From: Candidatus Hodarchaeota archaeon
GTDB taxonomy: Archaea > Asgardarchaeota > Heimdallarchaeia > Hodarchaeales > Hodarchaeaceae
Direction: 5' to 3'
Assembly: GCA_029856365.1 (NCBI GenBank)
Contig: JAHQWW010000016.1
Coordinates: 1-52,765, forward strand
DNA: 52,765 bases
This document shows, piece by piece, positions 9,271 through 50,575 of this stretch. The notes beneath the pieces were generated by a model that worked only from the letters and a program-made list of their open reading frames with translations, searched no databases and had not been told where the DNA came from. The position numbers and the translations under genes are program-made. Position 1 is the stretch's first letter. Each line of letters begins with the position of its first letter.

Positions 9271-10170
9271 CTGACCGAAAACACTTCATCCCTAAAAAAC
9301 ACTCAATTATCTCTGGCAGACGTTGTAGATTTGTCATTTGTTCAGATATACTTACTTAATATCTTAATTTCCTATTCAACAGGAGCTATTCGATTTACGT
9401 TATTAAACCAAATCAATGATGTATTCTTTCATGAAAAACCTCTAGCACCATCAACGTTTTATAATAGTTTGCAGAGACTTGAGAAAAAAGGATTTGTTTC
9501 TTTTCAAGAGGATGGAAAGAGTGGAAAAGGAAAAAGTGTTCAGGCAACACTCCTGGGTAAAATAGCAATCCAAATGATCACTCAAATGATGATTTTTAAT
9601 ATTTGGGACATAGGAACAATTTTAAAAGAGATTGTCCCTGAAATAATTTCAAAAACTAAATTAACACATGTTCATTCTACTCTTCTAATCCATTTTGATG
9701 AATTATTAAATGTAGAATTATTTGATGAATTCTATTATCCATACTCTGAAGAACTTTATGTCTTGGCTGACGACGAATATTATGATAGATATTTAAAACG
9801 AGGAATAACAGAGGTACACCAATCGAAATTCCGAAATAAGATGATTCGTGAGCCGAATAACTTTTTTGACACTACATTTTTAGTACGATACCGAAAAACT
9901 GATAAATTTGGGATTTCAGAAACTAAAATGCTTCAGGAAACATTAAGGGTTACAAAATCAAATGGAAAGCTAATAATCATATCAATTAATGACATCCCCC
10001 GATCAAATCACTTTATTCCAGATGCCTTTGGACAATTTGTCGATCAAAATCCATTCTTTTTTTCAATAAATGAACAGGATTTAAAATCTGATTTCAAAGA
10101 GGTAGGTATTCAAAACCTGAATGTACATAACATTAATGGAATAATAGTTGCATGGATTAACGTTCCTTAA
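9271..10170 (+). CDS. PadR-like winged-HTH regulator fused to a degenerate class I methyltransferase-like domain
   Basis: PSTFYNSLQRLEKKGFV wHTH motif; C-terminal NNFFD...LQETLRVTKSNGKLIII. Start uncertain: CTG 9271 (after GGAGG) or TTG 9331. Confidence 0.65.
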   Translation: MTENTSSLKNTQLSLADVVDLSFVQIYLLNILISYSTGAIRFTLLNQINDVFFHEKPLAPSTFYNSLQRLEKKGFVSFQEDGKSGKGKSVQATLLGKIAIQMITQMMIFNIWDIGTILKEIVPEIISKTKLTHVHSTLLIHFDELLNVELFDEFYYPYSEELYVLADDEYYDRYLKRGITEVHQSKFRNKMIREPNNFFDTTFLVRYRKTDKFGISETKMLQETLRVTKSNGKLIIISINDIPRSNHFIPDAFGQFVDQNPFFFSINEQDLKSDFKEVGIQNLNVHNINGIIVAWINVP

Positions 10171-10322
10171 AAGAGTAGCGAAGGCCCTATTATTAAGTCA
10201 TCCATATTATATGGATCTACATACCTTGTATTCTCTGTCACCAAATAAGGTTCAATAAACACCACTTATTCAGGTTGTTAGAGAAAAGCTGAGTTTAGCT
10301 CCTGATATTTTGTTCAACTGAG

Positions 10323-10577
10323 TTATTCAACTTTTCCAACTGCAAGCCGAATATCAGAGTCTTTTATGGTTTTTCGCCCCGAATGACCAGCAATTTCTAC
10401 TGCATATCGAGCAATTTCTAGGCCTTTGTTAGTGATGATTTCATTTAGACTTGCTATGGCATCAGCTGAAACACGGAAAGCTCCCGCATCTCTGATGAGT
10501 CTCTCAACACGAGCGCCTGCAAAACTTATTTTGCCTTTAGTTGCTGGCTTTGGTGCTGCTTTTTTCTTTTTTGCCAT
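10323..10577 (-). CDS. Archaeal histone (HMfB-like fold) with N-terminal lysine-rich tail
   Basis: RLIRDAGAFRVS...HSGRKTIKDSDI matches HMf hallmarks (AGA loop, RKT, His/Asp). Preceded by the 16-aa tail MAKKKKAAPKPATKGK. Confidence 0.95.
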   Translation of the reverse strand: MAKKKKAAPKPATKGKISFAGARVERLIRDAGAFRVSADAIASLNEIITNKGLEIARYAVEIAGHSGRKTIKDSDIRLAVGKVE

Positions 10578-10641
10578 TTTATATCACAATTTCTCTTTAT
10601 AGTAAGTCTTCAAATAGACTTAGAGATAAAGTCAATCATTC

Positions 10642-10649
10642 TTTATAAA
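10642..10649 (-). promoter_or_regulatory. Candidate TATA box for the histone gene
   Basis: TTTATAAA preceded on the minus strand by purine-rich GGATAAATG (BRE-like), about 65 bp upstream of the ATG. Confidence 0.45.
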
Positions 10650-10777
10650 CATTTATCCAGTAATAACACGAAAGAAGAATATCAAGAAAAATCAAAGTTC
10701 TATCGCGTAGATTATTTCTTTTTACTGTTTTCACATTGTAATCCTATAAGTATCTTTAAGTTAAACCTTTTTTTTCA

Positions 10778-12049
10778 TTAAAATGGTTCAAATGTAAAAG
10801 GGGATTCTTTAGTCCTAAAAAGATCATCTAGGTTGTCAAGATATGTTTTATCGGTTATTTGAACTAATCCATATTCGTAGAGTTTTTTAAGACTAATAGC
10901 TCCCATTACCAGACTAGAAAACCGTGCAATATCAATGGATATTTCTACATCATATTCTTCTCCAGCGGAAATCACTTTTGGCTTTCCTTTTTGAAAGTGG
11001 ATTATTAGCTGGACATTATTTTCAGGTAAGAATGTATCTATGATAGTGAGTTTTAGTTTAATGCTTTGGTTTCCAAAGTTATGATCAGACAGAAGAGTAA
11101 AGAATTTTAAAGTATCGATTAACCGATACATAATTCCTACTCCTTGGATATTGCTTTCTTGAAAGATATGGAAGATATTTTCATTGCCACGGCTTCGTGG
11201 TTCCTTCAAAAAATGATGAAAATAGTGATCATGAGTATTGTAAAGGATTCGATGGATTTGATCTTGTTGAGTGGCAAGAAATGTTAGAAGGCCTAAGAAT
11301 GCTTCTGGTGAATCATAAATGAATTCCATAATATGAATATTGTATTGAAGCCAGCTTCCCCCTTCTACTCTTTTCATACGAAACGCTAAATAACCCATTA
11401 ATATTTCATTTTCCCAATAACCAATGACTTTCATTCTAACAAGCATTTGTTTAAAGGCATCACTATCCTCTCCTCGTAAAATCGTACCATGTGTTGTTGT
11501 TACATATCTATTAAAGCATTCTGAGATGGCTTCAATATCATCCATTGATAAATAAGAGACATTCATTTTTGTGGTTTGTTGCAACGCTATTGGCTCAAAA
11601 CAGTATTGATTCATCTTATTTCCTAATCCATAGCCCATCTTTGTATAAAAATCGGGAGCAAATGGATATAGACATGTTAAACAGTACTCACGATCGTAAT
11701 AATGGTTGTGAGCAAATATCATTAGATCTTTGGCAACATGTTCTTTCTTATGAAGAAGATCAACACACATTTCCCCTATTCCACCACATTTAACCATATA
11801 TTTTGAAAATAAGTTCATCTCAAAATCATACAGAATCATCCCACCCAATAATTTGTCCTCTTGAAAACATCCATAAAAATTCACTATGGTATTTTCATTA
11901 TTAGTTTTAATCCAGTCTTCTTTTTTCTGTCTTTTCATATCTTCCGTAAAATTATCTGGTACCTGACCAGGATATGCTCCCGCCCAGATCGCAAGGAATG
12001 TGTCAAAATCTTTGTCCACTAGCTTTCTAACATTTCGATTCTCTTTCAT
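10778..12049 (-). CDS. eis: Eis-family GNAT acetyltransferase (tandem GNAT + SCP2-like C-terminal domain)
   Basis: About 420 aa; LYPFAPDFYTKMGY motif, MYRLIDT, SCP2-like SSLVMG..L...GLV, terminal Phe (EPF) as in Eis proteins. Confidence 0.85.
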   Translation of the reverse strand: MKENRNVRKLVDKDFDTFLAIWAGAYPGQVPDNFTEDMKRQKKEDWIKTNNENTIVNFYGCFQEDKLLGGMILYDFEMNLFSKYMVKCGGIGEMCVDLLHKKEHVAKDLMIFAHNHYYDREYCLTCLYPFAPDFYTKMGYGLGNKMNQYCFEPIALQQTTKMNVSYLSMDDIEAISECFNRYVTTTHGTILRGEDSDAFKQMLVRMKVIGYWENEILMGYLAFRMKRVEGGSWLQYNIHIMEFIYDSPEAFLGLLTFLATQQDQIHRILYNTHDHYFHHFLKEPRSRGNENIFHIFQESNIQGVGIMYRLIDTLKFFTLLSDHNFGNQSIKLKLTIIDTFLPENNVQLIIHFQKGKPKVISAGEEYDVEISIDIARFSSLVMGAISLKKLYEYGLVQITDKTYLDNLDDLFRTKESPFTFEPF

Positions 12050-12108: not shown

Positions 12109-12708
12109 TTAAATAAAGCTAATTGCAATATTGTTATCTTTTTTCTCCGTTATCATAATGATAGGATAACTCAATGCTGCTGATAGAGTAATAGCAAGTG
12201 TATTCCTCGTTTGTTGCCTCTGGAAATGATGGACATGGCCAGCCACCAAAATTTTTGGTTGATACTGATCAACAAGCTTTCTTACTTTTTTATTACCACA
12301 GTGAGGAATCATTTTTGTGTGAAATGGATCACTACATTGATCTGCAAGGCCGAACGCTGGTTCATGAGAAACTAAAACATCAACATTCCTCGGAATGGAA
12401 ATAGGTTCACAAAGATAATCAATACCGAAGAAATGCAATCCAGTTAATTTATTGAGTCTGTTGAGATGGTTGTTTAACCAGAAAAAGTTATGGATCCTCT
12501 CGAGTTTATGGTGGAGTTTTTCTCTCCCCCAGGTTTCTTTGTTTCCTTTTATGCTAAAAAATGGTAAAGGGAATTCGAAATCATTCTGTTTAGGATATTG
12601 GTGATAATTAAAGATATCTCCACAACAAATACAAAGATCAACCGTCTCTGCGATCTGAAATAATCGGGTGAAATCTCCCTCAAAATCAGCACTAAGAAGG
12701 ATTTTCAT
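12109..12708 (-). CDS. Calcineurin-like metallophosphoesterase
   Basis: SADFEG, CGD, KGNKE, SHEP and GHVH motifs; start moved to MKILL. Confidence 0.8.
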   Translation of the reverse strand: MKILLSADFEGDFTRLFQIAETVDLCICCGDIFNYHQYPKQNDFEFPLPFFSIKGNKETWGREKLHHKLERIHNFFWLNNHLNRLNKLTGLHFFGIDYLCEPISIPRNVDVLVSHEPAFGLADQCSDPFHTKMIPHCGNKKVRKLVDQYQPKILVAGHVHHFQRQQTRNTLAITLSAALSYPIIMITEKKDNNIAISFI

Positions 12709-12888
12709 TTTAATAACACATATTCGCAAAATAATGTTCATCTTGGACTTATGGAAGTCTTTTTCTAAAGATTCTCTTCTTTTAATATGAATATCTTAAT
12801 AGAATTTTCCCGTACCATTGTAAAAGAATAGATTCTTTAATTTGTCATTAAAACTCTAAGAATTGCTGAAGTTATTAGATGATAGTTT

Positions 12889-49717: not shown

Positions 49718-50575
49718 TCATTTATTTTTAAGAAACGTCCCGTTGTGATATTCCTCAAAAGCGATTCTAATTTCTTCTTGTGTGTTCATGACAATAGGTC
49801 CATACCATGCAACTGGTTCTTTAATTGGTTTACCCGATACTAAAAGAAATCGAACATGTTCATTTTCTGATGCTACAATTTGTACCGATTCACCTTCCCT
49901 GAAGATTACGAGGTGTTCTTTGGAAACTAGTTGTTCTTTATTTGGCTCAAAATAACCCTTTCCCTCAAAGCAATATGCAAAAGCAGTATAATCTTTCTCG
50001 ACTTCGTGTTCAAATTTCGTATTCGCAGGGATGGTTACATCAATGTATTCAGGGTTAGTTACAATGTCTTGTACAGGCCCGTTGATGCCATTAATTTCTC
50101 CAACTAAGATTCTAATTTTAATTCCATTATTAATTGTGATTTCTGGAACCTTAGCTGCAGGAATATCTTGATAACGAGGTCGCATCATTTTATTTGTTGC
50201 TGGTAGATTAACCCAGAGCTGGAACCCCCATAATAAACCATTTACTTGTGCTGGCATCTCTGAATGGATAATACCAGAAGCAGCGGTCATCCACTGGATG
50301 TCTCCACTTTTAATGATACCGTGATTACCGATAGAATCTTGGTGTTCTACATTTCCTTCAATCATATAAGTAACTGTTTCAATCCCACGATGAGGATGCC
50401 TAGGAAACCCCGCAATATAATCGTCTGGATTATCAGAATGAAAATCATCTAGTAATAGGAAAGGATCGAGTATTACCACTTCTCGGTGTGCAAATGCACG
50501 TTTTAACTGAACTCCTGCTCCCTCAATTGTTGGTTTACTCTTTGAAATTCTCTGTATTCTTCTAATTTTGTTCAT
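49718..50575 (-). CDS. Pirin family protein
   Basis: DPFLLLD, HPHRGIETVTY, HQDS, WMTAASGIIHSE, QLWVNLP, GPIVMNT. Confidence 0.95.
   Translation of the reverse strand: MNKIRRIQRISKSKPTIEGAGVQLKRAFAHREVVILDPFLLLDDFHSDNPDDYIAGFPRHPHRGIETVTYMIEGNVEHQDSIGNHGIIKSGDIQWMTAASGIIHSEMPAQVNGLLWGFQLWVNLPATNKMMRPRYQDIPAAKVPEITINNGIKIRILVGEINGINGPVQDIVTNPEYIDVTIPANTKFEHEVEKDYTAFAYCFEGKGYFEPNKEQLVSKEHLVIFREGESVQIVASENEHVRFLLVSGKPIKEPVAWYGPIVMNTQEEIRIAFEEYHNGTFLKNK

Follow-up and report, generated by a model that had tools for sequence, protein, structure and literature searches.

The window (the whole stretch of 52,765 nucleotides analyzed here, from a Candidatus Hodarchaeota archaeon, a lineage closely related to eukaryotes) carries on its minus strand a gene for an 84-amino-acid histone with a lysine-rich N-terminal tail and, 200 bp upstream and in the same orientation, a gene for an Eis-type GNAT (Table 1). 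Upstream of the latter lies a gene for a calcineurin-like metallophosphoesterase, retained at no fewer than three other orthologous loci, and downstream of the histone lies a gene for a 279-aa protein without a Pfam match, with conservation limited to the two nearest genomes. The GC content of the window is 32-36% and that of the genome is 34%.

Table 1. Features of the histone locus, followed by other histone-related loci of the same genome. Plain coordinates are window positions; those preceded by a handle refer to other contigs of the same assembly (G000).
Feature	Coordinates	Strand	Basis or remark
Tailed histone CDS, 84 codons + TAA	10323..10577	-	ORF list and sequence; NF043032, PF00808
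Lys/Ala/Pro-rich N-terminal tail MAKKKKAAPKPATKGK, codons 1-16	10530..10577	-	Predicted disordered; clade-wide M[APSV]K[KA]K
Short linker and histone fold, codons 17-84	10326..10529	-	AlphaFold2; HHoB and HMfB alignments
Shine-Dalgarno-like GTGAT	10583..10587	-	5 nt before ATG (-10 to -6); conserved spacing
Inverted repeat TAAGTCT...AGACTTA	~10605-10625	-	
TATA-box-like TTTATAAAG	10641..10649	-	64-72 nt upstream of ATG
Eis-type GNAT gene, 423 aa	10778..12049	-	PF13527 + PF17668 + PF13530 (SCP2_2), full Eis architecture
Calcineurin-like metallophosphoesterase gene	12109-12741	-	
Gene for 279-aa protein	9331-10170	+	
Pirin orthologue	49718-50575	-	39 kb from the tailed histone
Histone-fold doublet, ~142 aa	G000:C54:13348-13752	-	
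Histone fold fused to long C-terminal domain	G000:C131:23112 onward	+	Ends in polybasic tail
Histone with MEEY...RRR tail	G000:C26:28598-28702	+	Cut by contig end
Tail-less histone	G000:C64:13365-13541	+	
Small GNAT	G000:C64:13762-14058	+	PF00583, E 3e-10
HDAC-family gene	G000:C36:81772-82629	+	
Most divergent histone-fold paralogue	G000:C36:85626-85805	+	

Against the NCBIfam model NF043032 (archaea_histone, cut-off 50 bits) the protein scores 85.1 bits over residues 22-79; the matches to PF00808 (48.4 bits, E 1e-12, cut-off 21.4 bits) and to PF00125 (29.5 bits, E 1e-6, residues 23-80) cover the fold only. When the protein is aligned to HMfB (chain 1A7W) with HMMER, the AGA loop falls on A31-G32-A33, with G32 equivalent to HMfB G16, and the RKT motif on R68-K69-T70, equivalent to R52-K53-T54. 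The profile matches and this alignment bear out the intact HMf fold with AGA loop and RKT described in the first-pass annotation, and the translation of the minus-strand ORF likewise yields the 16-residue, Ala/Pro-rich tail with seven lysines (K3, K4, K5, K6, K10, K14 and K16) that had been read there. The ORF is confirmed as a real gene of an HMf-type archaeal histone with a lysine-rich N-terminal tail.

The ATG at position 10577 is the sole in-frame ATG, GTG or TTG of the whole ORF, and an in-frame stop lies two codons upstream. Given that the ORF has no second start codon, the tail is translated, and any synthesis of the fold entails that of the tail. Shine-Dalgarno-like motifs are complementary to the 3' end of archaeal 16S rRNA. 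The GTGAT in front of the histone fits the core that is seen as GGTGA at other histone paralogues, and most of the close orthologues (loci L013-L021) have G[TG]GAT at the same distance from the ATG; the 3' end of the 16S rRNA was searched for in the assembly and not found, so the anti-Shine-Dalgarno sequence is unreadable from this genome. An TTTATAAAG element is present at a similar upstream distance in L013-L019 and L021; with a TATA box in this position, the leader would be about 40 nt long. A nearer TATA-like sequence, CTATAAAG, located 16-25 nt before the ATG, is unconserved among the orthologues, and a leaderless transcript starting from it was dropped in favor of the conserved TATA box and GTGAT. 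A scan for bacterial-type promoters and terminators yielded nothing meaningful, as expected for an archaeon. The start codon, which had been singled out for confirmation, is thus the predicted one: the single start, the upstream stop and the conserved upstream signals place the tail inside the true CDS.

At many histone genes of the genus (loci L003, L004, L005, L022, L032, L038 and L042, as well as the window gene), an inverted repeat of 5-7 bp lies between the TATA box and the Shine-Dalgarno motif, with a sequence that varies by paralogue (for example, TGTGAG...CTCACA or ATGAGTC...GACTCAT); it could be a hairpin or an operator. A conserved hairpin in the 5' leader was considered and rejected, given the weak z-scores (-2.6 to +2.2) and the loss of the stem in the closest orthologues.

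Methionine aminopeptidase removes the initiator methionine in front of a small second residue. Given that residue 2 is Ala here (and A, P, S or V across the clade described below), the initiator Met is probably removed, and such removal is reported for HMpB and HLoB, tailed histones of other Asgard archaea (Cho et al., 2026, bioRxiv 10.64898/2026.07.02.735847).

AlphaFold2, run with a 60-sequence alignment, places helices at residues 21-30, 38-66 and 73-83 with pLDDT of 91-94 over the fold. The tail is predicted to be disordered, with values under 50 at residues 1-6 and 8-15. Among solved structures, the nearest are cryo-EM nucleosomes and hypernucleosomes formed by HHoB (9QV5, 9QV6 and 9QV7; E 4e-22), with the hypernucleosome 9QV6 as the best, followed by HMfB. 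HHoB is a tail-less histone of Hodarchaeales LC_3, the chromatin of which has been solved (Ranawat et al., 2025, bioRxiv 10.1101/2025.05.24.653377), and the functional residues were mapped from that study. All five DNA contacts of HHoB (R9, R15, R21, K55 and K58) are kept, as R23, R29, R35, K69 and K72, and the DNA contacts R10, R19, K53 and T54 of HMfB correspond to R26, R35, K69 and T70. Conservation of the dimer-dimer interface is likewise complete: the seven HHoB residues Y44, E47, I48, H51, R54, D61 and K68 reappear as Y58, E61, I62, H65, R68, D75 and K82, the Tyr44-Glu47-His51 triad of the HHoB 'open' state is therefore retained, and the tetramerization residues L46, H49, D59 and L62 of HMfB are represented by I62, H65, D75 and L78. 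The window histone differs from HHoB in the tail and in the stacking residues, four of the six key ones being changed (Q16 to D30, K29 to S43, D36 to N50 and R50 to G64). A closed hypernucleosome depends on a stacking surface made of a glycine in loop 1 and charged 'velcro' residues; the glycine is kept here, as G32.

Searching 5.8 billion proteins by word seeding retrieved 144 relatives; the named sources are Hodarchaeota, Heimdallarchaeota, 'Promethearchaeota' or MAGs labelled Thorarchaeota, and the nearest named contigs belong to Promethearchaeota and Hodarchaeota MAGs. In a maximum-likelihood tree built on the fold columns only (65 alignment columns, tail excluded), the tailed histone falls into a clade of 59 distinct Hodarchaeales sequences with support of 99/93. 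Although the tail was excluded from the tree, and although the folds within the clade have diverged to about 60% identity, all 59 members carry a long tail, without exception, and all of these tails begin M[APSV]K[KA]K. Histone phylogeny and conservation of the tail had been proposed as checks in the first-pass annotation. Of the 22 genomes that GTDB places in this genus, at least 15 have the long-tailed type; in 17 genomes from three other families of the class, no histone match was obtained at E 1e-10.

The clade is also recognizable from two positions of the fold. At position 43 (HHoB K29), 57 of the 59 tailed rows have S, A, G or C, and 65 of the 69 untailed or short-tailed rows have R. 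At position 64 (HHoB R50), 56 of the 59 tailed rows have N, G, S or E, with R and K absent among the residues tallied; R or K occurs in 33 of the 36 untailed rows and K, Q or R in the short-tailed ones. Both positions are diagnostic of the tailed clade. The HHoB mutant K29A/E32A/D36A binds DNA and forms wobbly hypernucleosomes with a larger pitch (Ranawat et al., 2025). Given the wobbly assemblies of this triple mutant and the clade-wide loss of K29 and R50, we infer, from one mutant of a different paralogue, that the M[AP]KKK clade would stack less tightly than the tail-less paralogues.

The closest points of comparison are HMpB, from Ca. Margulisarchaeum peptidiphilum HC1 (Hodarchaeales), and HLoB, from Lokiarchaeia, which have a singlet fold and a disordered N-terminal tail of about 16-32 aa, as here, with more than 30% Lys, a high pI and a KKK block near the N-terminus in each case. 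The tail of the window histone, with 16 residues before the linker and 18 before the conserved Phe, and with lysine at 7 of the 16 positions (44%), fits the definition of this type (about 16-32 aa of N-terminal extension, of which Lys makes up more than 30%), which was taken from Supplementary Fig. 3 of Cho et al. (2026). HMpB and HLoB are abundant, their tail lysines are methylated, the tails can be acetylated in vitro, and GNAT and SIR2 proteins act on them as writers and erasers (Cho et al., 2026). The proximal part of the HMpB.1 tail is rich in Arg and Ser; the window tail has no such part, and the fold keeps His65, a position at which HMpB.1-like proteins and many clade members have Asn.

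For phylogenetic comparison, the HMpB.1 sequence was taken from Supplementary Table 2 of Cho et al. (2026), with only the fold parts used, each of fewer than 70 residues. HMpB.1 groups with two of the retrieved relatives (P0116 and P0117; support 99/98, 81% identity), outside the M[AP]KKK clade, and a back-translated peptide pattern of HMpB.1 was not found in the 24 genomes of the order that were searched. The fold of the window histone is 56% identical to HMpB.1, 42% to HMpB.2 and 69% to an untailed paralogue from its own genome. HMpB.1-like proteins share with the clade the small residue at position 43, and an AU test on these 65 columns does not reject a joint clade of HMpB.1 and the M[AP]KKK histones (p 0.5). 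Judging by the sequences, HMpB.1 appears not to be an orthologue of the window histone, being instead a protein of the same kind, and the M[AP]KKK tail type appears to mark a clean clade distinct from HMpB.1, the sole biochemically studied tailed histone of Hodarchaeales. Given that HMpB.1 lies outside the clade and is only 56% identical in the fold, its modifications transfer to the window histone by analogy only. On that footing, the methylated and in vitro acetylatable tails of related Hodarchaeales and Loki histones support the view, advanced in the first-pass annotation, that this is a candidate modifiable tail.

The genome that contains the window (an assembly of 4.24 Mb in 204 contigs, 83.6% complete) yields 12 histone-fold matches. 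Among the paralogues are about five tail-less singlets, one divergent singlet, one doublet and one protein with a nine-residue KRK tail (MTKKPKRKAG...); a histone fold fused to a long C-terminal domain and a truncated histone with a different tail were also detected (Table 1). The tailed histone may form heterodimers in vivo with its tail-less paralogues. The genome yields three SIR2, three HDAC-family and about 47 GNAT matches; no SET domain was found in this 83.6%-complete genome, nor was a YEATS domain, in a search that ran without a working positive control. The histone-fold paralogue that diverges most has an HDAC-family gene about 3 kb upstream. A small GNAT is encoded about 220 bp downstream of a tail-less histone on another contig, which makes this pair the second histone-GNAT adjacency of the same genome.

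The pairing of the Eis-type gene with the tailed histone is found in eight genomes of the genus (G000, G007, G008, G009, G011, G014, G017 and G019) and persists even where the downstream gene differs. It is no genus-wide property, a possibility that was rejected because nine other genomes carry Eis orthologues (42-57% identity), none of them beside a histone. In five further genomes (G002, locus L024; G003, L025; G013, L040/L066; G018, L028; G020, L064), the gene upstream of the clade histone, in divergent orientation, encodes an FR47-like GNAT without significant similarity to the Eis-type protein. In this sublineage, the histone is followed downstream by a pirin gene; the pirin orthologue of the window has no adjoining histone. 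Altogether, the upstream neighbor is a GNAT in 13 of the 14 assessable genomes (8 Eis-type and 5 FR47-like); G010 has neither beside the histone, and in G021 the locus is cut by the contig end. Given that GNATs account for only about 1-1.5% of genes (a rough estimate assuming about 4,000 genes), it is suggestive that two GNATs unrelated to each other should take up this position. Still, the pattern amounts to some two independent events among close kin and was noticed post hoc, so the upstream GNAT is a lead rather than proof of a tail writer. Eis acetylates MtHU (HupB) of mycobacteria, an abundant nucleoid protein with a low-complexity basic tail of K, A and P that resembles the window tail; HupB is bacterial, has an HU fold and bears its tail at the C-terminus, whereas the window protein has a histone fold and an N-terminal tail, so the likeness is one of analogy only. 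Eis has no occurrence in the preprint of Cho et al. (2026).

The reading that we favor, with a probability of roughly 0.85, is that the window gene encodes a nucleosomal histone of a distinct, lysine-tailed clade, the tail of which would serve both as a DNA arm and as a modification substrate, and which would form looser assemblies. In this scheme, the protein would be a DNA-wrapping paralogue, the fold of which dimerizes and binds DNA in the manner of HHoB and HMfB. After removal of the initiator Met, the tail would project from the histone-DNA particle and would most likely combine the role of a flexible DNA-binding arm with that of a target of lysine methylation or acetylation. Members of the clade have the tail and lack two basic residues of the gyre-stacking surface (K29 and R50 of HHoB), and because of this loss, looser, 'open' assemblies are predicted relative to the tail-less paralogues of the same genome.

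That the tail is no chance feature follows from its rarity and its retention: only 5 of the 5,679 ATG-initiated ORFs of at least 60 aa in the genome have seven or more lysines among the first 16 residues, and the tail type is kept in 59 of 59 clade members. Clade tails range from 11 to 32 residues (median 21) and consist of 36% K, 22% A, 9% P, 9% G, 8.5% S and 0.2% R. The fixed parts are M1, the small residue 2 and the lysines at positions 3-5; the rest drifts through substitution and indels, even between proteins with folds that are about 90% identical. Construction of the tail from tandem DNA repeats was rejected, Tandem Repeats Finder having reported none at 10300-10800. Free drift of length and sequence is what would be expected if only charge counts, and a purely electrostatic arm for DNA binding or compaction, without regulated modification, as in HupB or linker histone H1, would also account for the K/A/P composition and the PAKK-like units seen in relatives, which match HupB and H1 tails; furthermore, contacts between the tail and DNA could compensate for the two lost basic stacking residues. 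This explanation is harder to reconcile with the near exclusion of Arg, which binds DNA equally well or better and makes up 9% of the folds of the same proteins, with the fixed KKK block at residues 3-5, which corresponds in position to the methylated KKK of HMpB.1, and with the recurrent upstream GNAT. We consider it the most serious competitor, albeit a rather doubtful one. A stronger form of the favored reading, under which the clade is a separate 'open-chromatin' variant that gained a lysine-only tail, lost K29 and R50 and has its tail acetylated by the adjoining GNAT, appears unlikely in its entirety.

A tail without any selected function, a neutral by-product of an AT-rich 5' extension that turned coding, would be in line with the ease with which Lys-rich extensions arise in AT-rich genomes such as this one, with the argument of Hocher and Warnecke (2024, PMC10919886) that such tails are readily acquired, and with the poor conservation of the tail sequence past residue 5; however, not one of the 59 tails has acquired a frameshift or a stop while the folds diverged, and the composition is very pure, without aromatic and most hydrophobic residues, which makes this scenario very unlikely. 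Less probable still is that the protein is an NF-Y/CBF-like histone-fold subunit of a transcription factor and no chromatin histone: PF00808 does span both groups, and P0010, a close homologue, bears the NCBI name 'NFYB/HAP3 family transcription factor subunit', but the score with the specific archaeal histone model, the retention of all HHoB and HMfB residues for DNA contact and tetramerization and the hypernucleosomes as nearest solved structures speak against it. The notion that translation starts downstream and that the tail is an annotation artefact can be set aside, because any later start would delete helix 1 and has no codon to use, and because the M[AP]KKK start, the Shine-Dalgarno-like motif and the upstream stop are kept in the orthologues.

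The relation of the tail to eukaryotic tails can be stated more narrowly than in the first-pass annotation, which had called it eukaryote-like and relevant to the origin of eukaryotic chromatin. The term holds for composition, given that the tails of H2B, H4 and H1 are likewise disordered, lysine-rich, exposed and borne by DNA-packaging proteins. It does not extend to homology: no homology between those tails and the window tail is detectable, the match to PF00125 being limited to the fold, the k-mers typical of Asgard tails are different from those of eukaryotic tails, and Asgard tails have been argued to be easily gained and not demonstrably homologous to eukaryotic ones (PMC10919886). The gene does bear on the origin of eukaryotic chromatin, but its interest had been overstated, since tails on Heimdall/Hodarchaeales LC_3 histones were already reported in 2017-18, together with a model in which the tail exits between the DNA gyres (PMC6136690). 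The HA histone described there, from the same order, has a lysine-containing N-terminal tail, of the kind first described on archaeal histones in that work, for which modification was proposed; compared by description, it differs from the window histone in having R17-R19 and H49N, whereas the window tail is free of Arg and the His is kept. Paralogues, tails, doublets and fusions of Hodarchaeales histones have also been surveyed (Hocher and Warnecke, 2024).

The window gene accordingly adds one example to the tailed Asgard histones, which are already published and partly characterized. What goes beyond the literature examined, and is to be read as comparative inference, is that two stacking residues appear to have been lost specifically in this clade and that GNATs of two different types occur as its neighbors. 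The tailed histones of Hodarchaeales bear on the rise of eukaryotic chromatin signaling, a point already made in the literature; for experimenters, the useful additions are a distinct clade, the lost stacking residues and two unrelated GNAT neighbors in different species.
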